Origin: an uncultured Candidatus Saccharibacteria bacterium
GTDB lineage: Bacteria > Patescibacteriota > Doudnabacteria > UBA920
Direction: 5' to 3'
Assembly: GCA_964612745.1 (NCBI GenBank)
Contig: CAZTCH010000007.1
Location: 1,327 to 65,326 of the forward strand
Length of the DNA stretch: 64,000 nt
Part shown: one piece after another, positions 2,854-55,358 of the stretch
Layout: each line of letters opens with the position of its first letter
How positions within the stretch are numbered: the first letter of the stretch is position 1
Notes under the pieces: generated by a model
Databases searched by the model: none
The model's input: only the letters and a program-made list of their open reading frames with translations
What the model was told of the DNA's origin: nothing
Translations under genes and position numbers: made by a program

Positions 2854-3010
2854 CTCCTGACGAGGATACCCCTCGTCGCAAATTACAAATCGCAAGCGCG
2901 AAATAGCAAACAAATTACAATATCGAATATACAAACAAAGAAAACTGTAAGTAGTTTACAGTTTTCAGTTGCAGTTTTGTCCGCCAACTGGCGGATTTGA
3001 GTTTTTCCGA

Positions 3011-8913: not shown

Positions 8914-9442
8914 ACTATTTGAATCGCAGCTCGACAACGAAAAAATTTACCTTGTTATTCGTGAACACCCAGTACTCTTTTATTTACGTTTGAGTATTGC
9001 TGGTTTTTTGTTTCTAGTCGGAATTCTGGCGCACATGTATATCCCCAACCTTGTTTCCACCGCACTCAGCGAGAGCGCCCTACTCGTACTTTCACTTCTG
9101 TTTTATACGTACTATTTGGTTATTTTGCTTGGGTTGTTATTGGTAGTTAAATTTTATTACCTCTCACTGCAAATAATAACTGATATGCGTATGGTGGACG
9201 TTGACCAGTCAGGGATTTTTAAGCGGAAAGTTACAGAGATTCAAATTGAGAACGTTGAAGAAGTCACCAGTAGTGCCCATGGGCTCCTCCCAACCGTCTT
9301 CAATTTTGGGAATGTCCTCGTGCAAACAAGTAGCGCCCAAAATGAATTTGAATTTGAAAATGTATCCCACCCAGAACAAATAAAAAAACTAATTCTGGAC
9401 TTGTACGAACAACGAAAACATAAATCTCCTCCTAAAAACTAA
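8906..9442 (+). CDS. Membrane protein with a bacterial PH-like (bPH_2/DUF304-like) domain
   Basis: The ATG at 8906 gives MHKLFESQLDNEKIYLVIREHP.... Two TM helices are followed by a PH-like segment (FKRKVTEIQIENVEEV...FNFGNVLVQTSS). The ORF-track start at 8858 is probably too far upstream. Confidence 0.5.
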   Translation: MHKLFESQLDNEKIYLVIREHPVLFYLRLSIAGFLFLVGILAHMYIPNLVSTALSESALLVLSLLFYTYYLVILLGLLLVVKFYYLSLQIITDMRMVDVDQSGIFKRKVTEIQIENVEEVTSSAHGLLPTVFNFGNVLVQTSSAQNEFEFENVSHPEQIKKLILDLYEQRKHKSPPKN

Positions 9443-21400: not shown

Positions 21401-24400
21401 ACCACTTCCTTTTGCGTCAATGGTTATGTTTTCGTTTGTTCCCGAAGATATGGCTGCAAGAGCAACTCCACCAGCGGCAGCGGCAGAAGTAATCTTAAGT
21501 CCAGTTGCAGCAGATGCAGTAACTGTGTCTACTTGCAGTGCATAGTTAGTACCTGCTTTGGCTACGGTTAAAGCAGTTGCAGAGCTCACTGTTGTAGTAG
21601 TGACACCGGTGTTGGTTATGCCAACCACAGCGGCAATCGCACCAGAAGAGTTTACTTGGAAGAGGTCGCCAGAACCTACGGTTAATGCAGATGCAGGGGA
21701 GTTATCACCAATACCCACATTGCCACCAGTTGTGATGCGTAAGTCAGAGGTAGTACCGCCACCAGAAAGGCTAAGTCCTCCTGTGGCTGCTGATATGGCA
21801 AATTCTGAGCTGGATTGAATTGCAATACCTGCTCCACCGGTTGGGAACAGAGTTGCACTTACGAGCCTAGGGGTAAGTGTTATTGCTTGTGAATGGGCGC
21901 CAGTTGCTTTTATACGAACTTGTCCATCTGACGTATTATCTACTGCAAAGATGCTGTCTCCAGAGTTATATACATCCAAAAGTGCTGTTGGTGCTGTTGT
22001 CCCAATGCCTACGTTTCCACCCGCAAAGATTGCAGCGTAGTTTGTGTCTGCTCCGGTAGGGGACTCCACATAGAGACCTGTGTTGGTAGAAGTACCATCT
22101 GTGTCATATGTACCGTTTGCAATGTATAAACCGTATCCATTTACAGTTCCACCAGCACCAACGTCCGCAGAAGGTTTTACATATGCTCCGTATACATTTG
22201 TAGTGCCACCGGTAGACTCTGCACCAGCTGTTGGTTGTAATCTTGCACCGTACACATTTCTTGTTCCAGAAGTGATAATACCAGTGGCGGTAGATGCAAT
22301 ATCAATTCCAACTGCTGTATCTGCAGTGGTAGAAGAAGTACTTATGTTTAAATACTGACCAATTCCAGTTTTAGCAGCGTTGCCACTGAGTGCGATATCG
22401 GAGTAGTTACCATAGACTGTGTTTGCGAGTGCGGTGGCGTCGGTAACAGTGTTGTATATGCTATACGCTGTATCTGCGTTTGTAGTATTAGCGTTGGCAA
22501 ATGAGTTGTAGAGCCCATATGCAGTGCCAGAAGCAGTAGAAGTAGTGGTTGTTCCGGTGAACTTTGCCAATGCTTTTCCGTTAGCGATTGTTGCATTTAC
22601 AACGTCTAACTTTGCGTCTGGGGAGGTGTTGTTGATACCGACATTACCACCTGAAGATATATCAAACAATACAGTTCCTGAGCTGTTTTGGGCTTGGAAA
22701 AGATCAGATGTTTGTGAACCATTACCTTTAGCAACCACAGGGATGACCCGGGCTGATCCTGATTCAAAGAAGCCGGCATAACCCACAGGTGCGCTCGCTG
22801 TGGTAGAAGCAGTGGAGTAAATTCCATAAGGGGTTCCACCGTTTGTTCCTGCGGTGTTTCTAGTTTGCGTTGCCGAGAATCTACCCGCGGTAATATCATA
22901 ATTGTCGAACCCGGAGCTTAAGGTTGCTGTGAGTCCTCTCATTGAGCTATTGGCGAATGTGGTTGAAGCGTCTGTGTTCGTAAAGCTTATTCCATTTGAT
23001 TGCCCACTGGTAAATGAGGCATTTATTAGATTTCCTACTCCTGCACCTTTGGTGATGCTAATAACGTCAGAATTTGTTCCGTGACTAATTGATATTGCAG
23101 GTTGTGCTGTTGTGGTTTCGGTAATTGCCAACTTACCTGTTGGTGATGTTGCACCAACCCCCACGTTGCCATTTTCAAATATCGCAGCGTAGTTGTTGGT
23201 GGCACCAGTTGCAGTTGCGTATAAACCAACATTCGTAGTAGCTGCACCAGTGTTGCTAAAGTATCCAGCGTAGTCAGTGCCAGATGTCGCTCCTGTTTGA
23301 GAAACATTCAATGTTTTGTTTGCGCTACCTGTTGCGGAAGAGGCTAAGGTGGCTATGTCTCCACTGTTTCCAGATATAGAAATGACATCATTTGAAGTTG
23401 TTGGCTGCAAAGTCGTGCCAGTTCTAGACCAGTAACCCAAAGCACCGCTCGTTGGAGCGGTAGAGGTAAGGTTTTTAGATCCGTCGGTGTACACAATTCC
23501 TGAAGCGCTTAACCCCGAGAAGTTAATTGTTCCAGAAGAAGTAATACCAGTTGCAGCAGCAATTGCACCAGAAGAGTTTACTTGGAAGAGGTCGCCAGAG
23601 CCTACGGTTAAAGCAGCAGCAGGGGAGGTGTCGCCAATGCCGAGCCCTGTTGCATTTACTGTAACCCTGTCAGAGTTACCTGTTCTTAAATAAATTGGTT
23701 GCCCTGAAGCAGCGTTTAGGATGGTTACCCCACCAGAGCTTTGGTTGAGTGCCGAGTTAGCTGCTGATTCTGCTAAAGTTCCGTTTTGGAATGAAATATA
23801 TGAATTATCCCATGTTGGTGGTCCAACAATTCCACGCACAGTCCCTGAACTGGTAAAGTTCATCGCTCCTTCTACTGTTAACGCTTTTGTTGGTGTGGCA
23901 ATACCAATACCAACGCTACCATTCATAAATGCGGCGGCGTATTCGGTGCCAGCGCCGGTGCCAGCATCTACGTAGAGGCCGTATGCAGTAGATGAGGCGT
24001 CGTTGTTGGCGATTGTAATGTGGTCGCCGTATACGGTGTGCGACTGGCCAGCATCTGTGTCTACTGTTACGGTTGTTTTATTGCCATATACAGTTAGTCC
24101 TGCTGCTGCGTCTTGTACGGTGCCGGTAAGTGCCATGCCTAGTACTGCGGTGTCCGTAATAGTGTTGCTCGTTACTTGAATTGTTCCTGCGGTTTGTGTG
24201 GAGCCGGAAGAACTAATAACTATTCCTTGTATGTCTGCGGTCGCAGAGTTAGAAATGGTGAGTGAATCCCCAGCAGTGTCTGGTGCGATTGTTGTTTTGC
24301 CGTCGCTGTCTACGTCGAAGTCTGCAAGGTCAATGTTGCCGTCGCCGTTTAAGCTGTTGGCCACAAAAGCAAATGGAGCGGCTACAAATTGCTTGCGAGG

Positions 24401-24823
24401 AGACATTTCTCCGTCGTAGCTTGTGCCAGTTGGAGCAAAGTTTACAGAGAGGTACAGGCTGCCGGTGGTAAAGTCTACTCCGGTCAGTGCGTTACATGAG
24501 CCTAGTTTTGCATTGAACACAGCATTGGTCACAACCAGCTTTGCGCAGTCGCCACTTGCTTGGTCAAAAGTTTCTGTCCAGAGCAGGGACCCACTGGTTA
24601 GTGCGTCGTATAGTTTAAATTCAAAAGCGTAGCTGCCATTTGCAACGTTGGTGCCATCACTCGTTTTCGTAAGTTTTCCTTGGAAGTTTACAATTTTAGG
24701 GATTGTAGCACTCGCTTGCTGTGGGTTTGCGGCAAAAGAACTGAACACAACACAAACCAAAGTAACGTACACGAGGGTACGTCTCAGGTTTTTTACCTTA
24801 GTTAAAAAGATATTTTGGTTCAC
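18461..24823 (-). CDS. Giant secreted repetitive surface protein, Gly/Thr/Ser/Ala-rich with beta-helix / tail-fiber-like repeats
   Basis: 2120 aa. The N-terminal signal peptide is LVYVTLVCVVFSSFAANPQQASA. The motif NYAAIF-GGNVGIGTT-P--KL-V recurs at least 8 times. Apparent GTG start. All plus-strand ORFs inside this span are low-complexity antisense artefacts. Confidence 0.85.
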   Translation of the reverse strand: MNQNIFLTKVKNLRRTLVYVTLVCVVFSSFAANPQQASATIPKIVNFQGKLTKTSDGTNVANGSYAFEFKLYDALTSGSLLWTETFDQASGDCAKLVVTNAVFNAKLGSCNALTGVDFTTGSLYLSVNFAPTGTSYDGEMSPRKQFVAAPFAFVANSLNGDGNIDLADFDVDSDGKTTIAPDTAGDSLTISNSATADIQGIVISSSGSTQTAGTIQVTSNTITDTAVLGMALTGTVQDAAAGLTVYGNKTTVTVDTDAGQSHTVYGDHITIANNDASSTAYGLYVDAGTGAGTEYAAAFMNGSVGIGIATPTKALTVEGAMNFTSSGTVRGIVGPPTWDNSYISFQNGTLAESAANSALNQSSGGVTILNAASGQPIYLRTGNSDRVTVNATGLGIGDTSPAAALTVGSGDLFQVNSSGAIAAATGITSSGTINFSGLSASGIVYTDGSKNLTSTAPTSGALGYWSRTGTTLQPTTSNDVISISGNSGDIATLASSATGSANKTLNVSQTGATSGTDYAGYFSNTGAATTNVGLYATATGATNNYAAIFENGNVGVGATSPTGKLAITETTTAQPAISISHGTNSDVISITKGAGVGNLINASFTSGQSNGISFTNTDASTTFANSSMRGLTATLSSGFDNYDITAGRFSATQTRNTAGTNGGTPYGIYSTASTTASAPVGYAGFFESGSARVIPVVAKGNGSQTSDLFQAQNSSGTVLFDISSGGNVGINNTSPDAKLDVVNATIANGKALAKFTGTTTTSTASGTAYGLYNSFANANTTNADTAYSIYNTVTDATALANTVYGNYSDIALSGNAAKTGIGQYLNISTSSTTADTAVGIDIASTATGIITSGTRNVYGARLQPTAGAESTGGTTNVYGAYVKPSADVGAGGTVNGYGLYIANGTYDTDGTSTNTGLYVESPTGADTNYAAIFAGGNVGIGTTAPTALLDVYNSGDSIFAVDNTSDGQVRIKATGAHSQAITLTPRLVSATLFPTGGAGIAIQSSSEFAISAATGGLSLSGGGTTSDLRITTGGNVGIGDNSPASALTVGSGDLFQVNSSGAIAAVVGITNTGVTTTTVSSATALTVAKAGTNYALQVDTVTASAATGLKITSAAAAGGVALAAISSGTNENITIDAKGSGTVSIGASSTGDVLLGGGSGSTGCTVTNSTGAFACTAGGSFTTLGLTGAVTGATSYNGLVITANTGVITSGTWNGTALTDAYVSDTLTASLFTGSGSTTTAVDLGTAEVAGTLAVGNGGTGATSLTDLITLGTHTTGNYVTSITNGSGISGGNGGSEGAALTLALGALSADWSQTGAFDITLNNAASELKILESAGGAFYGIFDVTDLSADRTMTVPDASGTLITTGNLSSITTVGTISSGTWNGTAISSTYGGTGINTSGSTGVPYITGGTWSVDATALAANHGGTGQSSYTTGDILYASSSSALSKLAGVATGSVLVSGGVGVAPAWSTAITVTTSVTSATINATSALQLGGASINTAGTLSNVAYKNAANTFTANNIFQPTVTNGTGASAGVQIAANSLTSGNGVDISSTSLSTGNLTAISSSSTAGGISGSSTLLNLARTGANGSTGHTAYGLYSTVTNTNVTSGTNVAAYLSASGATTANYGLLVAAGNVGIGTTTPPAKLTIEDGGSDSSNYGAIQIVKAATGHTGSHISFIRAASSVVGLGYKQTSNIFGFGAGTTGAFDPTYLAIDTTTGNITVGSSAAATAGLDLVSTVTTGTAQKITTSSLTTGAGLNIVGPTSTGITGTGILRVTSDVGASGTGGYLAGFNPDYSSGTAASSYGIVISGTDSTNVANSNNNFYSGITLSGNAAKNAYAGYFTVSSSSTTADTTTAGLFNSSITGAISTGTRQVWGIYSGPSTSGANTGGTTQVFGGYFAPSSTGSTTGSTVNVYGNYIANAATLTTGGTINSYGIYIANGSMNTTGTSTQYGLYVDTQSGADTNYGAYIGGFVGIGTSAPVSQLHVVANTASNTSGLRLDSNSSNGTNLQLYNNNSTGVSKFIRVMSDSSLQVINSAYSAALLTLTDGGNMGIGMSPTYKLDVSGDIRTSGTFRGTCNVDPAFSDFDCADYAEIYDSVAPVAAGEVLAVSSVGGESRKI

Positions 24824-27568: not shown

Positions 27569-28690
27569 TTAGTATTGAGCAGTGGTAATATACGTAACTG
27601 TGTTGGTGTACTGGCCTGCGGCTTGCCCAGTGCCAATTTCTAGCTTGTAGCTGACAGTTGTTTCTTCGCTTGTTGCAGGTCCAGTGGAGCAGGCAACTTC
27701 GTAGTTTCCGGTGTCCAGCGCTGCCCATGTGTTGTTTGTAGAAAAACGGCTTGTTGTGCCGGTGCAGAGTGACTCATCGCTACTATGGTAGCCAAAGGCC
27801 CCAGTGGTAATACTCCCAGGCCAAGTTGCTGGCGTGCTGTTGGTGCCGCTGACTGGGCTAATAGTTTCGCTGCCGCCGTCTCTGGTGAGTGCTTGGTTCT
27901 GCCGAATGGTAGTGGTGTATCCCGCCGAGGCGTTTGTGGTGACGGTAATTTTATGAGCAGCAATTGCTGGGACGTTGACCCCTAATTGACCATAGGCGAT
28001 AGCATTTGCTGTGGTGGTAATAGTAGTGGTTTCGCCGTCGAACAAGGTGCCAGATCCAATCCCAGAAAAGGTAATACTCAGGCTTGCTCCTACCGTTGCA
28101 GCGGTGGCTGTGTTGGAGAACCCAGTTTCGGTGTTGGTGCCATACCGTGCTTTCACTTTTATTTTATACGTAGTACTGGCGGTAAGGCCAGTAACTCGCC
28201 CACCACTGCCACCACCCCATGCGGTGTAGCTTTGCCAAGCTGCTGTTGTTCCTACCGTGTTATCTACTTGAATATAGTTTGTTGTGACAAAATCGTCGCT
28301 AGAAATTGCAATGGCGTAATTTGTATCTGTTTGTTGGCCGTCGCCTGTGGTAATAACGTAGTCCAGTGCGTTGTATAGGCTACCACCAGTATTTGTGAGT
28401 GTAGGTGTAGCAGGGACACCTGGGAAAGCATGCTGGAAAAAGCCTGGGAATATGGAATAGTTTCCTGAGGCTGTACTGCTGTCGTTAGAGTCGCCAATAC
28501 CATCTCTGCTGGCGTAATTGGTAGAGCTAGAAGCACCACCACCGCTGTCTAGGCTTGGGTTTTCTATTTGGTAATTGCTGCCACTCAATGTTTCTGCCTG
28601 TGCTATTGGGGCAAACACAAGACTGCACAAGGCACAGAGCCATACGAGTTGTTTTACAATCTGTAGCTGCATATACAGTAAGTTTACCAC
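27569..28690 (-). CDS. Secreted Thr/Gly-rich protein with an Fn3-like domain and a WxL-like C-terminus in which Trp is replaced by Tyr
   Basis: It has a signal peptide. STTYKIKVKARYGTNTETGFS is Fn3-like. The C-terminus GQYTNTVTYITTAQY aligns to the WxL consensus G-x-Y-x-x-x-L-T-W-x-L with W replaced by Y. 373 aa. Confidence 0.55.
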   Translation of the reverse strand: MVNLLYMQLQIVKQLVWLCALCSLVFAPIAQAETLSGSNYQIENPSLDSGGGASSSTNYASRDGIGDSNDSSTASGNYSIFPGFFQHAFPGVPATPTLTNTGGSLYNALDYVITTGDGQQTDTNYAIAISSDDFVTTNYIQVDNTVGTTAAWQSYTAWGGGSGGRVTGLTASTTYKIKVKARYGTNTETGFSNTATAATVGASLSITFSGIGSGTLFDGETTTITTTANAIAYGQLGVNVPAIAAHKITVTTNASAGYTTTIRQNQALTRDGGSETISPVSGTNSTPATWPGSITTGAFGYHSSDESLCTGTTSRFSTNNTWAALDTGNYEVACSTGPATSEETTVSYKLEIGTGQAAGQYTNTVTYITTAQY

Positions 28691-29820: not shown

Positions 29821-30924
29821 TTAGAAATTCCCTGTTGCGATGTACGTCAAGGTGGTAGAATAGCTACCTGCTTCAGTGAGTGTGGAAATGTTAGCTAGAT
29901 AGGAAACGCTTAAAGTTTCTGTTGCAGTCGGTACTGTTTCAGAGACAATAGTGGTTGCGGTGCTGGCAACAAAGTTCCAGCTACTGTTTGTCCCACGTGC
30001 GTACCCAGAAGCTACAGTTGCGTCGCCACTCGCGCTGACCGACAATGCAAATTGTTCGCTACCTGTTGTACCGTCACTATCGGTGGTAATGCTTGCTGCG
30101 GTAATAGTGTTGCCTCCACTGGTGAGTGTAGCACCGAAATACGTTACACTGTACCCGCTCTGAGCGTTTGTACCAACTGTTAAGGTGTGTGCTGCTGTCG
30201 GGGTGTTGCCAGCTGTGGCGTTGCCACCAACGGCGTCTCCTGTAGCCCAGCGACCAGTGCTAGAAGACAGAGTGCCAAACCCAATAGTGTTGTCGTCTAC
30301 AGTAAATGTGATAGATGGAGCGACTGTAGCGCTAATACTGACTTGGTCGTCGGTAATAATGTCATATGAAAGAGTGCCGCTGTCACCAAATGTACCACCC
30401 ACAGTTAAGGTGTCGTCATCATCTGCTGCGCCATTGCTAATTTGGTTGGTTCCAGCAACACCTGTGCTGGCGTGTGTACCAATTTTAATGCGTACACAAC
30501 GGCTTGCGGTTACTGTACCAGTTCCAGAAGTAATGGTGACTACTTGGCCAGATGCTCCAATGCCCCACGTTGCCCCACTGGGGGAGCCAGCGAGTGTTTG
30601 TTCTGTGTACGATGCAGTTGTACATGTGGCGCTATCGCCTGTAGCAAAGTCAACATCCCCGAACACTATACTGCTTACCCCAGTAAAATCAGCAGAAAAT
30701 GTTAGGGTTATGTCTTGCCCAGCAGTAACACCTGTAGGGGTAACAAAAAATATTGTGTGGTTTGCCGCAGTGCTCGCTTTTAATCTGCTGAGAGTGTCGG
30801 AGAATGAAGTTATTGCAGCAGCTTGTGCTACTTGGATGTTTGGTAGTAATAAGGCAAGAGAGACTATAACAACCAGAATGTGTTTTAGTCTTTTTTTGAG
30901 TGCGGTTGGGATAACGTTTCGCAT
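29821..30924 (-). CDS. Secreted Thr/Gly-rich protein with a WxL-like (YxI-variant) C-terminus
   Basis: Signal peptide. The C-terminus EAGSYSTTLTYIATGNF matches that of the 373-aa protein. SSWNFV is a candidate first motif. 367 aa. Confidence 0.55.
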   Translation of the reverse strand: MRNVIPTALKKRLKHILVVIVSLALLLPNIQVAQAAAITSFSDTLSRLKASTAANHTIFFVTPTGVTAGQDITLTFSADFTGVSSIVFGDVDFATGDSATCTTASYTEQTLAGSPSGATWGIGASGQVVTITSGTGTVTASRCVRIKIGTHASTGVAGTNQISNGAADDDDTLTVGGTFGDSGTLSYDIITDDQVSISATVAPSITFTVDDNTIGFGTLSSSTGRWATGDAVGGNATAGNTPTAAHTLTVGTNAQSGYSVTYFGATLTSGGNTITAASITTDSDGTTGSEQFALSVSASGDATVASGYARGTNSSWNFVASTATTIVSETVPTATETLSVSYLANISTLTEAGSYSTTLTYIATGNF

Positions 30925-44581: not shown

Positions 44582-45001
44582 TTATTCTTCTTCTAAGATT
44601 CTGAAAAAGAATTCGGATATCCTATCTGCATTTTTCATATTTTTATTGCAGTGTTCGTATTTAGAGCACATCCATGTGCCTCTAGACCTGTATTCAATTC
44701 CTTTTGGTCGTTTCTTGGTTTCGCAAGAAACAAAGAATACGTCACTTTGCTTTCTATGCTTGTGGCAAAATTCGCAGAACCCAAGCCGGAGTGCGCCAAT
44801 GGGTGGTTGTACTACTTCTAAGCGCAAACCAGAAAGGGAGTTTTTGTATTCAAATAGTACAAATAAGCACATCTCAGATTGGTCCAGCCAGCTAAAGTAT
44901 GTTAAATCTGAAAAGGCCACTTCTTCTAGTCGCGCTGGAAGACGTAGGTGTTTTACTTTTTTGAATAATGTTCGAATCTGTTCACGTGTGACTTGTTTCA
45001 T
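44582..45001 (-). CDS. Cys-rich hypothetical protein (zinc-finger-like CxxC...C...C pattern)
   Basis: CEFCHKHRK...FVSCETKK...WMCSKYEHCN. Its start overlaps the rsmI stop by 4 nt, suggesting translational coupling. The opposite-strand ORF at 44517..45005 was rejected. Confidence 0.5.
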   Translation of the reverse strand: MKQVTREQIRTLFKKVKHLRLPARLEEVAFSDLTYFSWLDQSEMCLFVLFEYKNSLSGLRLEVVQPPIGALRLGFCEFCHKHRKQSDVFFVSCETKKRPKGIEYRSRGTWMCSKYEHCNKNMKNADRISEFFFRILEEE

Positions 45002-45663
45002 TTAAACGATATGAGTAGAACTATTTCACCTTTTATGCTTGTGCGGTTTGCTAAAATTTGTGCGACTTCGACTGCGCTACCGCGAATGTATTCCTCGTGG
45101 AGTTTTGTAATTTCTCGAGCCACTACTACTTTGGCGGTGGGGAAGTACTTGGCGATTACTTGTGCTGACTTTACGATGCGTTGTGGGGATTCGTAAATAA
45201 TGAGTGTGCTGCTAGTTTGCTCTGCGTCTTTCAGTGCAGCGAGTAATTTTGGTTCTGTTTTGGGTAGGAAGCCTACAAACAAAAAGCGGTCGCTGGGGAG
45301 GCCTGAACCAGCCAGTGCTGTTGTAACAGCGCTTGGTCCAGGGATGCTCTCTACGGAGAGTTGTGCTTCTGTGCATGCGCGCACTAGTTTGAACCCAGGG
45401 TCAGAAATAGCAGGAGTTCCGGCGTCGCTCACAAGGGCGGCATTGTGTGTCTGGAGCTTGGCGAGAATTTTTGGAATAGCAATTGCTTCATTATGGTCTG
45501 CGAGCTGTACGAGCTCCTTTTTAGGTATTCCTAAATGTTTTAAAAGCGTACCGGTATGTAAAGGGTTTTCGGCAATAATAAAATCTACCTCGGTTAGGGT
45601 ACGAATGGCCCTGAGAGTAATATCTTCGAGGTTGCCAATGGGGGTTGGGACGATTGTGAGCAT
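44998..45663 (-). CDS. rsmI: 16S rRNA (cytidine1402-2'-O)-methyltransferase RsmI
   Basis: MLTIVPTPIGNLEDITLRAIRTL...FIIAE is the RsmI tetrapyrrole-methylase-fold N-terminus. 221 aa. Confidence 0.9.
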   Translation of the reverse strand: MLTIVPTPIGNLEDITLRAIRTLTEVDFIIAENPLHTGTLLKHLGIPKKELVQLADHNEAIAIPKILAKLQTHNAALVSDAGTPAISDPGFKLVRACTEAQLSVESIPGPSAVTTALAGSGLPSDRFLFVGFLPKTEPKLLAALKDAEQTSSTLIIYESPQRIVKSAQVIAKYFPTAKVVVAREITKLHEEYIRGSAVEVAQILANRTSIKGEIVLLISFK

Positions 45664-45774: not shown

Positions 45775-45851
45775 GGGCGTGTAGCTCAGCTGGTTAGAGC
45801 ACGAAGCTTATACCTTCGGGGTCCATGGTTCGAATCCATGCACGCCCACCA
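45775..45851 (+). tRNA. tRNA-Ile (anticodon UAU), CCA encoded
   Basis: A manual cloverleaf gives acceptor GGGCGUG/CACGCCC, D-stem GCUC/GAGC, anticodon stem CGAAG/CUUCG with loop CUUAUAC, and a T-arm CAUGG-UUCGAAU-CCAUG. A terminator follows at 45853-45883. Confidence 0.85.
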
Positions 45852-48684: not shown

Positions 48685-49308
48685 TTACGCGCTAATAATA
48701 ATTACTTTTGCTGTTTCGATGTTGGCCAAATCTTTCTTCTTGAGCACTAGCTTTTCTACAGTTTCTGCTTTACCACCCATTTCTTTTACAAAGCGCTCTA
48801 GTGGTTCTAGCTGCAATGTCACTCCTTCTTGCTGGTAGTGGCTTGGTATAACGATTTTAGGGTCAATCTGGTTTACGAGCTTTGCTGCGGTGGTCGCTGC
48901 GAGTACTCTTTCCCCACCAACAGGGAGTATGAGAACATCGATTTCTCCGAGTGCTTCGAGCTCATCTTCCTTCATGGTGAAGTCCTTGATGTGTGTAAGG
49001 TTTAAAATTTTTAAATCTTCACTTTCAATTAGGTATACAGTCACAAAGCCACCATCTTGTTTTATAGGGATACCGGTTACGGTAACACCTTTGATGTCGT
49101 ACTCTCCAGGGTTTGGAATGATGAATGGTTCACCAGAGAGTGATTGGTATGCGTTGTACAGCTTGTTCTGTTCGTCGGCAAGGATAACGATGTCGGCGTT
49201 GCCTCGTGGAGGAGTGAGTCCAGAATCTTTTCCGGTTGGGTCAGTAACTACTACTGCATCCTTTGTTGTGAATTTAAAGCTAGATAAGCCTAAGTATTGG
49301 ATATGCAT
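48685..49308 (-). CDS. Metallo-beta-lactamase-fold metal-dependent hydrolase (UPF0173-like)
   Basis: MHIQYLGLSSFKFTTKDAVVVTDP...ILADEQ follows the pattern of the small MBL-fold hydrolases. 207 aa. Confidence 0.65.
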   Translation of the reverse strand: MHIQYLGLSSFKFTTKDAVVVTDPTGKDSGLTPPRGNADIVILADEQNKLYNAYQSLSGEPFIIPNPGEYDIKGVTVTGIPIKQDGGFVTVYLIESEDLKILNLTHIKDFTMKEDELEALGEIDVLILPVGGERVLAATTAAKLVNQIDPKIVIPSHYQQEGVTLQLEPLERFVKEMGGKAETVEKLVLKKKDLANIETAKVIIISA

Positions 49309-49721
49309 ATGTTGTGTAACAAAATTCTCATTATGTAGTACAGGACTGGTATGTGTACCAGTGGGTTGGCAGTAGAAAGTAGACTCTTTCTAGAGAAAAT
49401 GGCTGTGTGTATAGCTCTGTGGCACAGTCCAAATATGGGTTAATTTTAGCATTTTTTGACCCCTTTCGTAAAACTAATGGGGCTTGCTTTTTTCGTTGGA
49501 TTTGCCTATAATATTGGAACTTACATGGTTTGGTGCTCGCTACTGCCACTTTGAAATAAGGGGCAAAAACTTAATTTTTAATCCCTGTGTAAGTGTTCTC
49601 AGTAGCACCAAAAGAATATTAACCAACTATGAAACACACTTTGTAACTCTCCAGGCAGTTTGTGCGTGGTTTTTTATTTGCCAACGCAGGAGTAAACAAG
49701 TGTATTTTGTAGAATAAATTT

Positions 49722-50996
49722 ATGTCAGACGAACCAGTACAAGCAGTTAATACTGCACAACAAAATATTGACGAAGTAAAAGCAAACAAGGCCCAGAGTA
49801 TGGAAGACTTGCTTTCCACCGGAGCTGAAATCCGCGTGTTGAAAGTTGGCGATATGGTAGAGGGCACATTGCTTTCTGTTGGTAAAAATGAAGTTTACAT
49901 TGACATCGAAGGTATTGGCATTGGCGTTGTCCGTGGTCGTGAATTGTACGATGACCAAGCAACCCTCGCTTCTTTGAAGGTAGGGGATACCATTTTGGCA
50001 TCTGTTGTTGAATCGGAAAACAAAGATGGCAACATCGAGCTTTCCCTCAGACAAGCAGGGCACGAACGAGTATGGCAAGCACTCAAGGCTAAGATGGAAA
50101 GCGCAGAAATTGTGAGCACGAAGATTCTTGGTGCAAACAAAGGTGGTCTTATGGTAGAAATCAATGGCGTACTCGGGTTCTTGCCTGTGTCCCAGTTGAA
50201 CTTAGAACACTACCCACGCGTAGAAGATGGTGACAAACAGAAGATTCTTTCCGCTTTACAAAGCTATGTTGGTCAATTGTTTGCAGTGCAAATCATTACT
50301 GCTGATCCAGAAGAAGAGAAGTTGATTGTGAGCGAAAAAGCTGTGTTTGAAAAAGAAACAGAAGGTCGCTTGGCTCAACTCAAGATGAACGACGTTATTA
50401 CCGGTATGGTAACTGGTGTTGTTGACTTCGGTATCTTTGTGAAGTTTGGTGATTTGGAAGGGTTGGCACATATCTCTGAGCTTGCTTGGCAGCGCGTAGA
50501 AAATCCAAAGGATTTGTTCCGTGTCGGTCAGGAAGTGCAAGCAAAGATTATTGCTATAGACAAAGGACGTGTTTCTTTGTCCATCAAGCAATTGCAGCCA
50601 GATCCATGGCTCGAAGCTGTGAAGCAGTACAAGATAGGGCAAGTTGTAGAGGGTAAGGTCACAAAAATCATGCCATTTGGTGTGTTTGTAGAACTCTCTC
50701 CACAAATCCAAGGTTTGGCTCATTTGGCAGAATTGTCACATGACGCAATCAAGGACCCAGAATCTGTACTTAAGGTTGGTGAAATGAAGGCTTTCAAGAT
50801 TATCTCTATTGAGCCAGCAGATCACCGCTTAGGTCTTTCTTTGAAGGCTATGGAAGAAAAGCCAGCAAAGGCAGAAGTAAAAGCAGAAGAAGTCTCCTCC
50901 TCCGCTTCCGACGCTGCTGAAGCTATGTCGGACGAGAAAGCTACGGCGGACCTTCGGGAGGAAAAGACTGAAGAGTCTGCTCCTATCGCTGAATAA
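49722..50996 (+). CDS. rpsA: 30S ribosomal protein S1 (four S1 domains)
   Basis: Repeated S1 OB-fold segments (GDMVEGTLLSVGKNEVYIDIEG, VITGMVTGVVDFGIFVKF, VVEGKVTKIMPFGVFVEL). A terminator follows at 51005-51033. Confidence 0.85.
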   Translation: MSDEPVQAVNTAQQNIDEVKANKAQSMEDLLSTGAEIRVLKVGDMVEGTLLSVGKNEVYIDIEGIGIGVVRGRELYDDQATLASLKVGDTILASVVESENKDGNIELSLRQAGHERVWQALKAKMESAEIVSTKILGANKGGLMVEINGVLGFLPVSQLNLEHYPRVEDGDKQKILSALQSYVGQLFAVQIITADPEEEKLIVSEKAVFEKETEGRLAQLKMNDVITGMVTGVVDFGIFVKFGDLEGLAHISELAWQRVENPKDLFRVGQEVQAKIIAIDKGRVSLSIKQLQPDPWLEAVKQYKIGQVVEGKVTKIMPFGVFVELSPQIQGLAHLAELSHDAIKDPESVLKVGEMKAFKIISIEPADHRLGLSLKAMEEKPAKAEVKAEEVSSSASDAAEAMSDEKATADLREEKTEESAPIAE

Positions 50997-51004
50997 ATCA
51001 GACT

Positions 51005-51033
51005 AAAAAAGAGCCAACATGGCTCTTTTTTAG
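51005..51033 (+). terminator. Rho-independent terminator (aaaaaagagccaacatggctcttttttag)
   Basis: Hairpin plus a T-run located 9 nt after the rpsA stop. Confidence 0.75.
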
Positions 51034-51040
51034 CGAAAAA

Positions 51041-51077
51041 ATAAAGAGCCGGGCTAGTTGGATAATATCCTTCTAGT
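51041..51077 (-). terminator. Terminator-like hairpin (gagccgggctag...ctagtccggctc) followed on the minus strand by a U-run, downstream of the GC-rich LysM gene
   Basis: A 12-bp stem with one mismatch. The minus strand then reads tttattttttcg. Confidence 0.6.
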
Positions 51078-51109
51078 CCGGCTCTGAGTCGTTTCGCGTG
51101 AAGCAGTCT

Positions 51110-52276
51110 TTATGCAGCGGCGGATGCCGCTGCTGTGTCAGGTGGTGAGGGAGGTAGTTCCGCCACCGGTTTTGCTTCGAGCAGAATGCGTTCTGCTGGC
51201 TTTGGCGCGTCCGGGAGGACAAGCACTCCCGGCGTGACCGTCACCCGGAAGTCCCCGCGGGTAAAGACAATCCCGTCCGCGCTCCGGTTAATAGCCACAT
51301 CTTGCCCCATGTTATCAACACGCAACATTTTAGTGCCGGTTTGCACCGTTGCTGAATTTGCGTCGAAGTGGACGGTTAATCGGCTGGGGTGGTCGTCGGT
51401 CGCTGCCTGTGTGATGGCCGGGGTTTCTGCCTGAATGGTGGGCGGTAGTGCGGTGCGGTGGGTTGGTGCATCGTCTTTGGTCCAGCTCACAGGCAACTCA
51501 ACGGCTGCACCGACGCGATTCGGGGTAAAGACAAAGTCTTGCCCCGGAACTACGTCTGGTCTACCGTAGCGAACTGGGTTAGCGCATCCTTGAAGCGAGT
51601 AGGCCCGTTGTTCACCCTCGTGACCGTCAGCCGTATAAACACATTCGAAGCATGCGCGCTCACGGAGATATTGCGGCCGGTCATGGTCCGCATATCCCAC
51701 GTTCGCCCAGCCTGTCGCCGTGCCAGCACTGATACTCATCACCTGTATACCGTTAACCGGCAGGCCGAAGTCATGTGCGGCTTGCGCCCGCATGACCTCT
51801 GGAGCGGTGTCGTTGTTAATACCGCCACGGATAACCGCGGGGCCCGCCTGTTCGGGACGAAGCCATTTACGGTGCGCTAAGTAGCCCAGCAGGCCGATCA
51901 ATATTAATATCCCGAACAATACCCGCAGCCAGGTGTAGCTTTCGGTGGGTGGAGGTGGGGGCGGCGGTGCGATGCCGAGTTGGGCGAGGTTCGCGACCTG
52001 CGGCAGAATGCCTGCTGCTTCAAGACCAGCGAGTTGTTCGCCGGGTTTGATCAGCACGACCGTTTTGCCGTCGCTCGCCTTGAACACTCGGCCCGCCTCT
52101 TGCAGGAATGGGTTTGCGGCGACAACCTTTTGCCATTGTGTGGGGTTGTCCAGCTTCACGCCGGACAATTCCCATACGGTGTCATTGGGTTGGACTGTGT
52201 AGAGCGGTTGCGGGTTTTGCGCGAAGACTGCGAAAGTCAGCGCGCAGAGAATTGCGATTGTGAAAGTTTGCTTCAC
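51110..52276 (-). CDS. LysM-domain membrane protein with a poly-Pro linker; the gene is strongly GC-rich
   Basis: It has a signal peptide. YTVQPNDTVWELSG...W.KVVAANP is LysM-like, PPPPPPP follows, then the TM helix LRVLFGILILIGLLGYLA, then a Cys-containing domain. By eye the gene is about 60% GC, against about 42% in the flanks. Confidence 0.7.
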   Translation of the reverse strand: MKQTFTIAILCALTFAVFAQNPQPLYTVQPNDTVWELSGVKLDNPTQWQKVVAANPFLQEAGRVFKASDGKTVVLIKPGEQLAGLEAAGILPQVANLAQLGIAPPPPPPPTESYTWLRVLFGILILIGLLGYLAHRKWLRPEQAGPAVIRGGINNDTAPEVMRAQAAHDFGLPVNGIQVMSISAGTATGWANVGYADHDRPQYLRERACFECVYTADGHEGEQRAYSLQGCANPVRYGRPDVVPGQDFVFTPNRVGAAVELPVSWTKDDAPTHRTALPPTIQAETPAITQAATDDHPSRLTVHFDANSATVQTGTKMLRVDNMGQDVAINRSADGIVFTRGDFRVTVTPGVLVLPDAPKPAERILLEAKPVAELPPSPPDTAAASAAA

Positions 52277-52643
52277 GATTTGCCTCCTTTAAAGCAATGT
52301 GAAAGAGTTGGTTACGCTCTCAGGTACCGCCTCCGTAAATTGAGGCACTGAAAGCACTTGAAATTCGGCCGTGCGAGTCAGATTACCCGCTGCCGAGTAT
52401 GGGGTGAATTCCGCATGGAACCCACAGTTATAGGGCAAATAAGATTTGCCATACTTATTGGGTTTCACTAGTGATAATTCAGAGTATAATATATTTGACT
52501 GTATGTCAATAATATTGCATAGTAATTTTACTTTACCGCATAAACATGGTAACTATTGTGAATTTAGGTTTTTGGACGTAATATTTGCTCTGTTAAGGCA
52601 GTGTTTGATAATATTTACAGTATAGATTGTTACCACCAATTGT

Positions 52644-53360
52644 ATGGGGATTAAATACAAGGTCAATGCTAATTTTTTTGAGAAGTGGACTCCTGAAATG
52701 GCCTATCTTCTAGGATATCTGTACGCCGATGGTAGCTTGGAGGATGCTTCTTACTTACGCGGTAAGTATCTGAGGTTGACTAGTACTGATTTTGAATTGG
52801 TGGACTTCACGAAAAAGGTTCTGGGTTCAGAGCATACTATTGTTACTATCCCTCCGAAGTCTAAGTTAGAAAAGACCAGATATTTTTTGCGGATTGGCAA
52901 CCATAAAATATTTGATGACCTGATTGGTTTGGGTCTGCATCCTAAGAAATCATTGACGATGAAATTCCCTCAAGTCCCTCAACGGTTTTTATCACATTTC
53001 GTTCGTGGTTATTTTGATGGAGATGGACATGTCGGGATAGTGAAAAGCGGGAATTCATTCAGGCGGGTGACTATAGTTTTTGTAAGTGGTAGTTTAGATT
53101 TTCTGATAGGTGTTGCAAATTGTTTGGAACAGAATTTGGGGTTACGGATAAATAAAGTTTACAAACGTCCTGGTGTATACCGTTTGGCCTATTCCACGCA
53201 TGACAGTATCAAGGTATTTAAATACATGTACGCGGATGCAAATGGTGTATTTTTAAGAAGAAAATTTGGGGTGTTCAAAAAGTTTTTTAATGATTATAAT
53301 AAGTGGGTAGATTCAGAAATCCAGGGGATTTTAAGCGTAAATGGTCGTGTGGTGAAGTAG
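52644..53360 (+). CDS. LAGLIDADG homing endonuclease, double-motif single-chain type, free-standing
   Basis: The two motifs are LLGYLYADGSL (aa 22-32) and VRGYFDGDGHV (aa about 121-131). 238 aa. The stop codon TAG at 53358-53360 lies inside the first 18 nt of the predicted tRNA-Cys. Confidence 0.85.
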   Translation: MGIKYKVNANFFEKWTPEMAYLLGYLYADGSLEDASYLRGKYLRLTSTDFELVDFTKKVLGSEHTIVTIPPKSKLEKTRYFLRIGNHKIFDDLIGLGLHPKKSLTMKFPQVPQRFLSHFVRGYFDGDGHVGIVKSGNSFRRVTIVFVSGSLDFLIGVANCLEQNLGLRINKVYKRPGVYRLAYSTHDSIKVFKYMYADANGVFLRRKFGVFKKFFNDYNKWVDSEIQGILSVNGRVVK

Positions 53361-53419
53361 TCTAACACGGCGGTCTGCAAAACCGCTATTCATGGGTGCG
53401 AATCCCATCACGACCTCCA
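53343..53419 (+). tRNA. tRNA-Cys (anticodon GCA), non-canonical (3-bp D-stem, G at T-loop position 55)
   Basis: The acceptor is GGUCGUG/CACGACC with discriminator U and CCA. The anticodon stem GCGGU/ACCGC carries the loop CUGCAAA. The T-arm is AUGGG-UGCGAAU-CCCAU. The deviations from consensus lower confidence. Confidence 0.55.
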
Positions 53420-53424
53420 TTGTA

Positions 53425-53509
53425 GCCCGAGTGGTGGAACTGGTATACACGCGACACTTAAAATGTTGTGCCGAAAGGATTGAGGGTTCGAGTCCCTCCT
53501 CGGGCACCA
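53425..53509 (+). tRNA. tRNA-Leu (anticodon UAA), long variable arm
   Basis: The acceptor is GCCCGAG/CUCGGGC plus A-CCA. The anticodon stem CGACA/UGUUG carries the loop CUUAAAA. The variable arm is UGCCGAAAGGAUU and the T-arm is GAGGG-UUCGAGU-CCCUC. It is contiguous, with no intron. Confidence 0.85.
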
Positions 53510-53512
53510 CAT

Positions 53513-53542
53513 AAAAAACACCGACATAAGCCGGTGTTTTTA
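53513..53542 (+). terminator. Rho-independent terminator (aaaaaacaccg-acataag-ccggtgtttttatg)
   Basis: Hairpin plus a T-run directly after tRNA-Leu. Confidence 0.7.
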
Positions 53543-53564
53543 TGTGCTCCTCATTGTTTGCATA

Positions 53565-53590
53565 CAAAACAAAACCCCCTCAAGGGAGGG
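53565..53590 (-). terminator. Terminator (ccccctc-aag-ggaggggg plus a U-run on the minus strand) for the 53599..54234 gene
   Basis: The minus strand reads accccctcccttgagggggttttgtttt. Confidence 0.65.
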
Positions 53591-53598
53591 GGTAAAAT

Positions 53599-54234
53599 TT
53601 ATTTTGCTAAAGCCAACTCTTGGTGAGCAGGTTTAATTGCGTATTTCTGGTTAACAGTTTCTTGTATAGCTGCCATTTCACGTTCTACTTTTTCACAACC
53701 ACGTAGCCAGTTAGCTGACCCTGGTACAACGTACACACCCATCTTTTTCTTACAGGTATTGTACTTATTTTTGTACAATGGTTTGTCGAGTAGTTTGGTT
53801 ACGGCTTGAAAGCCTTGAAAATGGTTTTCAAACTTTCTCCATTGTGAATGCCCAGGCTTTACACCAACGCTACCACAGTTAAGGTTTGCAGCGCGAGCAC
53901 AAAAGTTGCTTTCCACAAAGGTAATACCGAGTGCTTGTTCCCAATTTGGCTCCAGAATAATCTGGTCTGCGTATGGGGCAAGTGGAGACTTTTTGGACTC
54001 CAAGTATTTTTGCACAGCTTCTGCGAGTTCCGCATTAGCCAAATCTTGCACATTAAGGCTCTGTTTCTGAGTGATTAAGCTTAGTGCACTTGGTTTCATC
54101 TCAAACACAAGGCTCTGAGTGTTCTCGTTTATAGTCTGTGCGGCACCACTATGTGGGTAGACTAAGCTTACTAATGTAATGAGTAATCCTACGGCTGATA
54201 ATTGAATATTTGTATAAGTAAGGGGAGCTTTCAT
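53599..54234 (-). CDS. Secreted hypothetical protein (signal peptide; possibly a cell-wall hydrolase-like fold)
   Basis: The N-terminal hydrophobic segment is LLITLVSLVYPHSGAAQ. ALGITFVESNFCARAANLNCGSVGV weakly resembles a lytic-transglycosylase (SLT) motif. 211 aa. Confidence 0.5.
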   Translation of the reverse strand: MKAPLTYTNIQLSAVGLLITLVSLVYPHSGAAQTINENTQSLVFEMKPSALSLITQKQSLNVQDLANAELAEAVQKYLESKKSPLAPYADQIILEPNWEQALGITFVESNFCARAANLNCGSVGVKPGHSQWRKFENHFQGFQAVTKLLDKPLYKNKYNTCKKKMGVYVVPGSANWLRGCEKVEREMAAIQETVNQKYAIKPAHQELALAK

Positions 54235-54578
54235 TGTTCAAACTCCTTTCTACAATCGATCGCGTTTGTCTGAAAACAGATGTGGGCGATTCGAGAATTA
54301 TAAGGTCTGGCAACTGTCACAACATATAGAACTTGCCAAACAAAAAAGCGCCACAAGGCACTTCTTATGGACCTAGTATGCCAAATATGGGCCGATTAGT
54401 CAATACTTAAAAGTTAAAATAAGCTTTATTTAAGAGGATATTTGTTTTTTACCTCTCAGAATAGGCGTAAATACCCTGTCAATACCACACTCTATTTGAC
54501 TTTTCATATCTATTTGGCACTGATATGCAGGGTTTTAAAATTTAGCTTTAATTGTAAGGGTTTTATTGGTGGCGTGGG

Positions 54579-54632
54579 TAACCCTGACACGAAACAGTCG
54601 GGATGTCGAAGACTCCAGGGGAACCCAACTTC
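54579..54632 (-). repeat. Copy 1 of an approximately 50-nt direct repeat (minus-strand sense ...UUCCCCUGGAGUCUUCGACAUCCCGACUGUUUCGUGUCAGGGUUACCCACGCCACCA)
   Basis: The plus strand gggtaaccctgacacgaaacagtcgggatgtcgaagactccaggggaa is 44/50 identical to copy 2 at 55243. Three substitutions keep a 6-bp stem pairing (CCUGAC/GUCGGG vs CCCGAC/GUCGGG, one pair via G-U wobble). It ends with a tRNA-3'-end-like ACCCACGCCACCA. Confidence 0.6.
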
Positions 54633-54694
54633 GCCAAGGCTACGTCGGGCTCAGTCGAACCCAAAAGTTCCTTCATTCATTCTTTCTCTTTCAA

Positions 54695-54728
54695 AAACAA
54701 AAGACACCCACTAAAGTGAGTGTCTTTT
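54695..54728 (-). terminator. Rho-independent terminator of the ParB-like gene (minus strand aaaagacactcac-ttta-gtgggtgtcttttgtttttg)
   Basis: A 12-bp stem with one mismatch, followed by a U-run. Confidence 0.65.
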
Positions 54729-54762
54729 GTTTGGAGCTCCATAATACGAGATGTCAGAACTG

Positions 54763-55182
54763 CTATCTGTGCAATAGATCATAGATAACTCTATCTTCAG
54801 TGTAGATAATATTGATAAATGGGGGTTTGAACTTTTTTAATGCTTCGAACGTATGATTACCATCGAGTAAGTAATAATTGCTATCAAATTTCTCACACAG
54901 TAAAACTATTTGTTCAGCCATAAATTCTTCAATGATGATTTTATCAGTAGTATCTTGAAATTTCACTACTGATTCATGATTGAGCATTTCTGGCTCAGGA
55001 CCTACGGTTCGTATAATCAATTCTGGGTTAACTTTTTCTGGACCTTTTATATTATCTTTTCGGCTTTGAATATACTTTAAAAGATTCGTATTATTAGCTT
55101 CTAAATGTTTAAAAGTATCAACTAACCATTGAGAGTAGTTTCCAACATTTTTAGCTTCCTCAATTTGTTTAACTGTTAACAT
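54763..55182 (-). CDS. ParB-like nuclease domain protein (ParB/Srx superfamily), small and stand-alone
   Basis: YYLLDGNHTFEALKK matches the ParB/sulfiredoxin DGHHR-type motif, with DGNH in place of DGHH. 139 aa. Flanked by the approximately 50-nt direct repeats. Confidence 0.6.
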   Translation of the reverse strand: MLTVKQIEEAKNVGNYSQWLVDTFKHLEANNTNLLKYIQSRKDNIKGPEKVNPELIIRTVGPEPEMLNHESVVKFQDTTDKIIIEEFMAEQIVLLCEKFDSNYYLLDGNHTFEALKKFKPPFINIIYTEDRVIYDLLHR

Positions 55183-55242
55183 GATTTCAGTATAACAAAA
55201 AATTCCCTTTAGGGAGAGTTTAATGCTGGAGCGGGTAACCCC

Positions 55243-55296
55243 GACGCGAAACGGTCGGGATGTCGGGGACTCCAGGGGAAGACCGCACTACATCTC
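55243..55296 (-). repeat. Copy 2 of the approximately 50-nt direct repeat; its minus-strand 3' end ...GGGGUUACCCGCUCCA equals the last 12 nt of tRNA-Gly(GCC)
   Basis: The plus strand reads tggagcgggtaaccccgacgcgaaacggtcgggatgtcggggactccaggggaa. Confidence 0.6.
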
Positions 55297-55305
55297 ATAA
55301 ACATA

Positions 55306-55345
55306 TAGACCTCACCGTAAAGGTGAGGTCTATATGTTTGGAGCG
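55306..55345. terminator. Perfect 17-bp hairpin (aacatatagacctcacc-gtaaa-ggtgaggtctatatgtt)
   Basis: Seen directly. It lies immediately 3' (minus sense) of the tRNA-Gly 3' fragment. Confidence 0.5.
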
Positions 55346-55358
55346 GGTAAGGGGAATC

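Follow-up and report, generated by a model that had tools for sequence, protein, structure and literature searches.

A GC-rich single-gene cassette at an insertion hotspot in Doudnabacteria-like Patescibacteria, with a base composition that appears to be maintained rather than fading

We analysed a 64,000-nucleotide stretch (the window) of contig CAZTCH010000007.1 (assembly GCA_964612745.1), recorded as an uncultured Candidatus Saccharibacteria bacterium, and within it the minus-strand gene 51110-52276(-), which encodes a 388-aa protein and stands out as a GC-rich island. An earlier note, made from the letters of the stretch, had described a single gene of about 60% GC in low-GC DNA, with composition shifting at its ends, and had proposed it as a candidate horizontal acquisition. 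We find that the island is real, that it belongs to a family whose sampled members are nearly all GC-richer than their surroundings, and that the excess has outlasted saturated synonymous divergence. The gene lies next to rpsA, 49722-50996(+), with the following parts and edges:

51110..52276, minus strand: coding sequence (CDS) of the 388-aa protein and GC-rich island (list of open reading frames, ORFs; GTG start at 52276, stop 51110-51112)
52283..52290, minus strand: Shine-Dalgarno sequence AAAGGAGG, 6 nt upstream of the GTG start (sequence)
52277..52474, minus strand: 5' leader of ~200 nt, GC 0.47, predicted to be structured (fold z-score -3.8; putative transcription start)
52481..52509, minus strand: promoter-like element, TTGACA (52504-52509), 17 nt, TACTCT (52481-52486) (sequence and alignment; putative function)
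51033..51085, minus strand: intrinsic-terminator-like hairpin and T-tract 3' of the gene, stem 51045-51057 / 51073-51085 (sequence)
51003..51033, no strand assigned: perfect 14-bp hairpin, bidirectional rpsA terminator, left edge of the insertion site
52644..53360, plus strand: free-standing LAGLIDADG homing-endonuclease gene, divergent from the target gene (Pfam LAGLIDADG_3, E=4e-13; host-like GC of 0.386)
53343..53509, plus strand: tRNA-Cys(GCA) and tRNA-Leu(UAA), right edge of the insertion site

The GC content of the gene is 0.590, compared to 0.435±0.038 for the 45 other ORFs of the window (z=4.1), and all three codon positions are shifted: GC1 is 0.671 vs 0.519, GC2 is 0.486 vs 0.388, and GC at third positions (GC3) is 0.612 vs 0.400±0.047 (z=4.5). 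The richest 1167-nt segment of the entire 64 kb coincides with this gene (GC 0.595), the runner-up elsewhere reaching 0.521. A two-breakpoint maximum-likelihood fit placed the change-points at 51075-52249, no more than ~30 nt from the CDS ends. On the 5' side, GC falls through the intermediate value of the leader to 0.28 in the promoter/intergenic region (52475-52643). When the window's own usage served as reference, the codon-adaptation index of the gene was 0.650, as against 0.754±0.033 (z=-3.2), and GCG, CCG, CTG, CGG and GGC were over-represented. By each of these measures, composition and codon usage deviate from those of the host genome. The windowed GC and codon-adaptation calculation that the earlier note had proposed thus bore out, well beyond chance, its description of an isolated high-GC gene, bounded at its own ends and lying between low-GC flanks (rpsA on one side, the LAGLIDADG and tRNA genes on the other).

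The product is rich in Gly, Ala, Arg and Pro (GARP fraction 0.36 vs 0.23±0.04) and carries Pro/Ala linkers, as would be expected if the GC excess were a mere by-product of linker composition. Against this account, which we consider very improbable, stands the shift in GC3 itself, which is raised throughout the gene, in LysM, transmembrane (TM), core and linker regions alike. Four-fold-site GC is 0.65-0.70 as compared to 0.28-0.58 in neighbouring genes, and even the untranslated leader is enriched (0.47 vs 0.28). An overlapping or antisense gene as the source of the high GC was also considered and rejected: in nine family genes, open stretches in alternative frames were no longer than those in synonymous-codon shuffles.

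The locus was recovered in an independent sequencing run, in which a 7.5-kb contig (L002) matches the window at 7,536 of 7,539 positions (99.96%) and covers both junctions. In a 5.8-billion-sequence database, only two whole-protein matches were found besides the source record, at 99% and 60-65% identity. The more distant is the ortholog in L001 (60% identical by BLASTP, 65% in pairwise and multiple alignments), a different organism that carries the gene at the same site, in the order LAGLIDADG, gene, rpsA, Lactamase_B_3, gyrA. This copy is richer still, with a GC of 0.635 and a GC3 of 0.716 next to a flank GC3 of 0.40-0.54. Since an independent assembly reproduces both junctions and a diverged ortholog shares the site, we conclude that 51110-52276 is a genuine chromosomal gene and that chimeric assembly, named as the trivial alternative in the earlier note, is excluded. 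The same architecture recurs with another allele in L010, and the gene's conserved promoter, leader, Shine-Dalgarno sequence and terminator are in register with the flanks. What could be said for DNA of a GC-rich organism having been joined into a Patescibacteria contig is that assemblers struggle here, as the contig of the species' GTDB representative breaks within rpsA; we nevertheless hold such a join to be next to impossible. That contig (L003, CAZZBG010000043.1), whose rpsA is 100% identical, ends ~290 nt before the island, perhaps owing to heterogeneity among strains or to an effect of coverage or GC. With the island forming an assembly break in the representative genome of its species, such genes are likely under-recovered in metagenome-assembled genomes.

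An exhaustive HMMER search showed that the protein belongs to a family of ~309 cluster representatives sharing its architecture (counted at E<=1e-3, with 150 among the matches listed), 24 of them at E<=1e-30. Thirteen members could be placed in genomic context, and their surroundings, which look like small Patescibacteria genomes, include rpsA|tRNA-Cys, dprA|topA and gyrB|pheS intervals, a LactB3-adjacent site and a site with a type IV secretion system (T4SS) pilin neighbour; one family sample came from a 0.1-µm groundwater fraction. The family gene was GC-richer than its own flanks in 12 of the 13 contexts (mean +0.139, range +0.08 to +0.25; Wilcoxon p=0.0005), and none of the flanks exceeded a GC of 0.51. 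Family GC (~0.54-0.65) showed no correlation with that of the host (0.33-0.51; Spearman rho 0.28, p=0.35). For the window, L001 and L010, the fitted change-points fall at the limits of the CDS; the islands of L084 and L124 take in one extra small ORF.

To compare the age of the excess with the age of the genes, we used two syntenic ortholog pairs. In the window/L001 pair, every gene has reached saturation at synonymous sites (pS, the proportion of differing synonymous sites, 0.74-0.79), four-fold sites agree at 28-40%, and protein identity is similar for the target (65%), LactB3 (66%) and LAGLIDADG (68%). Four-fold-site GC at conserved residues is nonetheless 0.65 in the window gene and 0.70 in its L001 ortholog, against the 0.28-0.58 of the neighbours. 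The second pair, L084/L124 (dprA-X-topA), is saturated too, with a family-gene GC3 of 0.56-0.64 and a four-fold-site GC of 0.44-0.68; flank GC3 for the two pairs is 0.27-0.54. A relaxation estimate indicated that, at a pairwise synonymous divergence (dS) of at least 2.9, ~90% of an initial GC3 excess would have been lost per lineage, assuming an equilibrium GC3 of ~0.4, a change of GC in ~3/4 of synonymous changes, and vertical descent. The predicted GC3 after relaxation is <=0.45, and the observed values are 0.61 (window) and 0.72 (L001). Amelioration toward host composition was therefore not seen, GC3 values of 0.56-0.72 having been kept in two saturated pairs. Because the excess outlasts saturated synonymous divergence, the gene is not an un-ameliorated recent import. 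Since observed GC3 exceeds the relaxation prediction and is elevated gene-wide, we infer that the GC excess is maintained or re-supplied, not fading.

The search for a donor gave no support to an outside origin. Among 15 billion proteins, no homolog above 40% identity was found outside the lineage. No donor lineage of matching composition emerged: none of the 13 loci had a GC-rich context and no phage or plasmid source was found. IMG/VR (pattern scan) and the INPHARED phage and PLSDB plasmid collections (tblastn with the core domain) returned no matches, PADLOC returned none, and PHROGs returned only the LysM module of the endolysin phrog_380. A phage, plasmid or defence origin was rejected accordingly, all of these searches being negative apart from LysM-level matches. 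A recent one-off transfer from a high-GC organism outside the lineage, not yet ameliorated, would account for the sharp one-gene island, the shift at three codon positions, the foreign codon usage and the GARP-rich protein, as well as for the adjacent tRNA and homing endonuclease and the absence of the gene from sister lineages. We consider it improbable. The only close homologs (99% and 65% identity) belong to the same Doudnabacteria-like lineage, where they are syntenic orthologs whose GC equals or exceeds that of the window gene; the earlier note, which had asked for a BLASTP comparison, had itself named such an outcome as refuting its proposal. Each of the 13 family contexts is low in GC, the excess persists in both ortholog pairs, and the cassette's own promoter region has a GC of only 0.28. 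These observations speak against a high-GC host, such as an actinobacterium, as the donor, which the earlier note had suggested.

The insertion site was then compared among relatives found through rpsA, which are recorded as Candidatus Doudnabacteria by several submitters and labelled 'uncultured Candidatus Saccharibacteria' in third-party annotation (TPA) records. In five of them (L004, L005, L006, L007, L011), rpsA is followed by ~100 nt, tRNA-Cys, tRNA-Leu and a conserved ~215-aa gene, and no cassette remnant was found at these empty sites. The interval from the rpsA terminator to tRNA-Cys is precisely where the three carriers (the window, L001 and L010) have the family gene, together with its promoter and leader. 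The distribution is thus patchy, with three carriers and five non-carriers. Other occupants of this hotspot or its adjacent tRNAs are a LAGLIDADG gene in the window, L001, L013 and L014, an HNH endonuclease in L010 (9185-9664) and a large serine recombinase in L007 (7470-9056). We conclude that the rpsA/tRNA-Cys/tRNA-Leu interval is a general insertion hotspot in the clade. In L009, L015 and L020, this interval also holds ORFs of 158-171 aa resembling the 9185-9664 gene of L010.

Alleles at this site have been exchanged. In a tree of 1,364 concatenated GyrA, LactB3 and RpsA residues, the carriers did not form a supported clade and L010 grouped with the non-carriers L004 and L011. The rpsA genes of L001 and L010 are close (nonsynonymous divergence, dN, 0.039; dS 0.72; 94% identity at full length and 98.9% over 368 trimmed columns), and the promoter and initial ~100 nt of the leader are common to both genomes. 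Their family genes, in contrast, are 31% identical (dN 0.82), ~10x the divergence predicted from the window/L001 rate ratio. The L010 allele has <=35% identity to any known family member, and gene tree and species tree are incongruent, the L001 allele grouping with that of the window and not with that of L010. Given the empty sites, the varied occupants and the divergence of the L001 and L010 family genes relative to rpsA, the locus is a hotspot at which the presence of the gene is polymorphic through gain and loss and at which an allele has been replaced at least once (L010 vs L001). Of the proposed horizontal acquisition, then, an accessory gene exchanged at a hotspot stands, and a high-GC source outside the lineage does not.

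The only three differences between the window and L002 over 7,539 nt all fall within 29 nt of the core domain, 51729..51757(-). All are non-synonymous (aa 174, 182 and 183: V/L, I/V and S/T) and lie just before the invariant G185. The probability of all three falling in the target gene is ~0.004, a figure based on small numbers, and the cluster fits a short conversion tract or positive selection. Hypermutation of the diversity-generating retroelement type was examined and rejected: no long direct repeat of the gene that could serve as template occurs within 50950-53450, and the strain differences are not A-specific, being G/C, A/G and G/C on the coding strand. A Pfam scan of the ten neighbouring ORFs of the window (44998-45663 and 48685-63474) revealed no reverse transcriptase.

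The protein itself could be divided into the following parts, based on sequence, alignments and AlphaFold2 (AF2) models with their confidence scores (pLDDT per residue, pTM per domain):

52217..52276, minus strand: signal peptide, aa 1-20, MKQTFTIAILCALTFAVFAQ (family-conserved hydrophobic helix ending AQ; AF2 helix at residues 2-18)
51992..52216, minus strand: LysM-like ectodomain, aa 21-95 (YTVQPNDTVW...NPFL...GR...PGEQLAGL; profile matches and AF2)
51947..51967, minus strand: poly-proline stalk P104-P110, PPPPPPP (sequence)
51860..51934, minus strand: transmembrane helix, aa 115-139, then HRKWLR (AF2 pLDDT up to 95; hydrophobic-then-basic pattern conserved in the family)
51509..51871, minus strand: family-specific core domain, aa 136-256 (alignments; domain model pLDDT 80, pTM 0.74)
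51113..51508, minus strand: Pro/Ala-rich linker, small C-terminal β-domain and tail, aa 257-388 (45-48% identity to L001; low pLDDT, five short strands)

Divergence from the L001 ortholog (dN/dS ~0.09) indicates a working gene under purifying selection. Pfam matched the window protein only with LysM2_NFP, below threshold (E=0.003, 17.9 bits vs a cutoff of 36). At the family level, PF01476 matched 6 of 35 members at an E of 5e-4 or weaker, NCBIfam LysM models matched 19 of 35 (best 3e-6), and the best match of the family profile among PDB sequences was the LysM of TsaP (6ve2, E=6.6e-10), over profile positions 5-65 only. The AF2 model places strands and helices (E33-38, H45-54, H56-59, E64-66/72-76; pLDDT 79-91) in the order β-α-α-β of the LysM fold, as judged from secondary-structure order, not superposition. 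These features point to a LysM-type ectodomain and putative peptidoglycan binder. The predicted cleaved signal peptide and the positive-inside rule would place the LysM module outside the cell and the core domain in the cytoplasm. Conservation within the protein is highest in the core, where the window and L001 sequences share 80% identity. Its model shows a single helix and then a long β-hairpin sheet; G185, G189, L228, C231 and N233 are invariant ('LQxCxN' motif). No analog of the core was found in Pfam, NCBIfam, PDB sequences or, by Foldseek, among PDB and viral folds. The signal peptide, proline run, TM helix and (with family-level support) LysM-like module suggested by the earlier note are thus retained. 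Its Cys-rich domain is not: the product has four cysteines, three of them in the core, and only C231 is invariant across the family.

No annotation or name was attached to any family member whose source record was looked up, and a literature search turned up neither an account of this family nor one of GC-rich islands made of a single gene in Patescibacteria. A GTDB genome scan with target peptide patterns detected no relatives, word-indexed protein searches recovered few family members, and a metagenome scan returned mainly LysM-only proteins, the true members being only L085 and L086. In L126 (1082-2170) and L124 (1239-2345), the gene is called as two ORFs separated by a single in-frame stop. 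The stop in L126 is a TGA aligned with the invariant Gly84, suggestive of genetic code 25 (UGA=Gly; Gracilibacteria/Absconditabacteria). That in L124 is a TAG just before the TM helix and may reflect a pseudogene, read-through or a sequencing error.

Altogether, we favour, at a probability of roughly 0.6, a mobile cassette that moves within the lineage and whose high GC is actively upheld by a force acting specifically on its transcription unit. The cassette would comprise a single accessory gene with promoter, ~200-nt leader, CDS and terminator. Its insertion point, flanked by the rpsA terminator and tRNA-Cys, is a hotspot of a Doudnabacteria-like Patescibacteria clade, and homing endonucleases and a recombinase gather there too. 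The product of the cassette would be a bitopic envelope protein with a cleaved signal peptide, a LysM on a proline stalk outside, one TM helix and, inside, a novel α/β domain with an invariant Cys-x-Asn motif. Such a protein could tether the membrane or a cytoplasmic partner to a cell wall, its own or the host's, and would act as a fast-evolving, exchangeable surface determinant whose alleles move horizontally but within the lineage. GC-richness would then be a hallmark of the whole family, held over long residence in AT-rich genomes.

As to the force, we tentatively rank first a GC-biased repair or gene conversion tied to frequent allelic recombination. The evidence for recombination and the endonuclease neighbours fit it, but the endonuclease genes have host-like GC and are absent from other contexts. 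Selection on the coding sequence or transcript seems less likely; the CDS-sharp boundaries and enriched leader fit it, but an enrichment of codons ending in G is not what translational selection usually leaves. As a source of the excess, re-seeding from an unsampled GC-rich reservoir is placed level with selection. A wider claim, in which a gene-specific process throughout Patescibacteria raises these genes to ~0.55-0.65 GC in genomes of 0.33-0.50 GC across synonymous-saturating times, is one we advance only with reserve. Candidates for that process are unusually strong GC-biased gene conversion, acting on a surface-protein cassette that undergoes hyper-recombination, and direct selection in favour of a GC-rich transcription unit.

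Continual re-seeding also has to be weighed as an explanation of the whole pattern. The family would reside in an unsampled GC-rich reservoir (GC-rich Patescibacteria or their mobile element) and be imported repeatedly at hotspots of AT-rich genomes, so that most copies would be young. The demonstrated allelic replacement, the patchy distribution, a gene GC that stays around 0.54-0.65 whatever the host GC, and a codon signature matching GC-rich mutation bias all agree with this, and GC-rich Patescibacteria do exist (L022, GC 0.59). However, none of the sampled contexts is GC-rich, the viral and plasmid collections gave no match, the gene is not accompanied by an integrase, the divergence of orthologs is roughly on a par with that of their neighbours in two genomic contexts, and the AT-rich promoter belongs to the cassette. 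We regard re-seeding as unlikely on this balance.

Several points weigh against active maintenance within the lineage. One of the 13 members, L083, is not GC-rich. The 13 are drawn from ~309 representatives and are partly non-independent (two ortholog pairs, some interrelated), and with 0/13 GC-rich contexts a GC-rich reservoir could still hold up to ~20% of members. Vertical co-divergence of the window and L001 is an assumption, since allele replacement occurs at the locus, and dS would be saturated as well had diverged alleles been imported independently at this position. The G-ending codons and GARP-rich protein are what a GC-rich background would be expected to produce. Finally, the GC-maintaining forces are candidates only, the function and topology of the protein are predicted, and the core domain has no known analog.

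Compositional islands are routinely taken as recent foreign DNA due to ameliorate; this uncharacterised family stays GC-rich in saturated syntenic orthologs, and its members form GC-rich islands of one gene each in nearly all the low-GC Patescibacteria genomes sampled. If maintenance within the lineage is correct, the family would be a natural case of a non-mutational force setting base composition at the scale of a single transcription unit, and a sharply bounded natural reporter of that force. It would then bear on the debate over the determinants of bacterial GC content and on the trust that GC-based calls of horizontal transfer deserve in metagenome-assembled genomes. It would also represent a new LysM-TM-cytoplasmic-domain envelope module of ultra-small bacteria. 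A fast-evolving, exchangeable, putative peptidoglycan-binding membrane protein is, moreover, a plausible cell-surface or host-interface determinant in this group.

The cassette shares with tRNA-adjacent genomic islands its compositional deviation, insertion beside a tRNA, patchiness, mobility genes at the site and allele replacement. It differs in being a single gene without its own integrase or att repeats, and in being GC-richer than the host, whereas genomic islands are usually AT-richer. Unlike in classical islands, the deviation is found family-wide, in different genomic contexts, and shows no amelioration. A related concept is that of GC-biased gene conversion in bacterial genes that recombine (Lassalle et al. 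2015, PMC4450053). Raised GC3, recombination with allelic exchange, and a genome with AT-biased mutation are features in common with such bacterial cases. The excess of +20 to +30 GC3 points described here is confined to one transcription unit, unlike genome-wide conversion. Genome-wide signals in bacteria are reportedly far smaller and less sharp. Free-standing homing endonucleases, such as seg/mob of phage T4, promote co-conversion of flanking markers. As in homing-endonuclease hotspots, LAGLIDADG or HNH genes adjoin the cassette in three lineages and the site is polymorphic for presence and absence. The likeness ends at the dprA|topA and gyrB|pheS family members, which have no endonuclease neighbour, and at the host-like GC of the endonuclease genes.

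At the protein level, the N-terminal signal peptide and LysM module recall TsaP, but there is no similarity past the LysM: the FlgT-like domains are missing, the core is without analog, and Foldseek gave no match for the protein outside the LysM. None of the ten neighbouring window ORFs scanned with Pfam is a pil gene, and no secretin neighbour was found in the window. The layout of FimV/HubP, which we take to be LysM outside, TM helix and domain inside, resembles that of the window protein; TPR domains are not present in the latter. Membership in the TsaP or FimV/HubP families was not assigned, their defining features being absent.

Within the cassette, the first ~100 nt of the leader are conserved in L001 and L010. 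Two hairpins are kept in the three lineages (window 52277-52474(-); L001 ~2790-2967; L010 ~8830-8940), and some base changes appear, by eye and in three lineages only, to preserve pairing. The leader may act as a cis-regulatory RNA; no riboswitch or known RNA was detected in leader or gene with Rfam, at the gathering threshold or at E≤5. The position of the promoter-like element is kept in L001 (TAGAGT) and L010 (TAAAAT), and a weak hairpin-type Rfam alignment covers 51002-51085. A possible terminal inverted repeat (51097-51111 / 52263-52277, 13/15 nt) was dismissed as chance, because ~3 such pairs are expected by our own estimate and it is absent in L001, L084, L127 and L128. At its 3' end, the LAGLIDADG ORF extends 18 nt into the start of tRNA-Cys (window 53343-53360), with the same adjacency in L001, consistent with homing into or beside a tRNA gene.

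Some family members have neighbours related to pili. L086 carries a TrbC/VirB2-type T4SS pilin beside the family gene (2285-3199, E=1.6e-8). In L124, the family gene is followed by a Flp/Fap-pilin-like ORF (2498-2788), itself GC-rich, whose match is weak and sub-threshold (E=2e-3), and a 186-aa ORF inside the GC island of L084 (9203-9763) has N-terminal hydrophobic stretches, as seen by eye. A link of the family to pili or T4SS is possible and suggestive only; such neighbours were not seen in the window. A Lactamase_B_3 homolog is divergently adjacent to the family gene in L128 (19-249) and L129 (152-673) and lies two genes from the target in the window (48685-49308), which may reflect a weakly conserved neighbourhood.

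Elsewhere in the window, a second GC-rich (~0.55) stretch, free of ORFs, lies at 56495-57165 beside tRNA-Leu(GAG) (56408-56494). It is made up of ~4 degenerate direct repeats (143-198 nt), and every unit closes with a copy of the T-arm/3' end of tRNA-Leu; the final one, at 57137-57162, shares 96% identity with the 3' end of the tRNA proper. No Rfam match was obtained. The stretch resembles a stack of integration (att) scars or an array of repeats derived from a tRNA 3' end. A tRNA-Ile with anticodon UAU (TAT) is encoded at 45775-45851 and is conserved upstream of gyrA in L004, L007, L010 and L011; such a tRNA is uncommon in bacteria, in which AUA is usually read by a lysidine-modified CAU tRNA. 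Finally, the 2,120-aa ORF at 18461-24823(-) has a GC2 (0.58) above its GC1 (0.48), and ORFs 27569-28690 and 29821-30924 show the same pattern; these may encode repetitive or low-complexity surface proteins.

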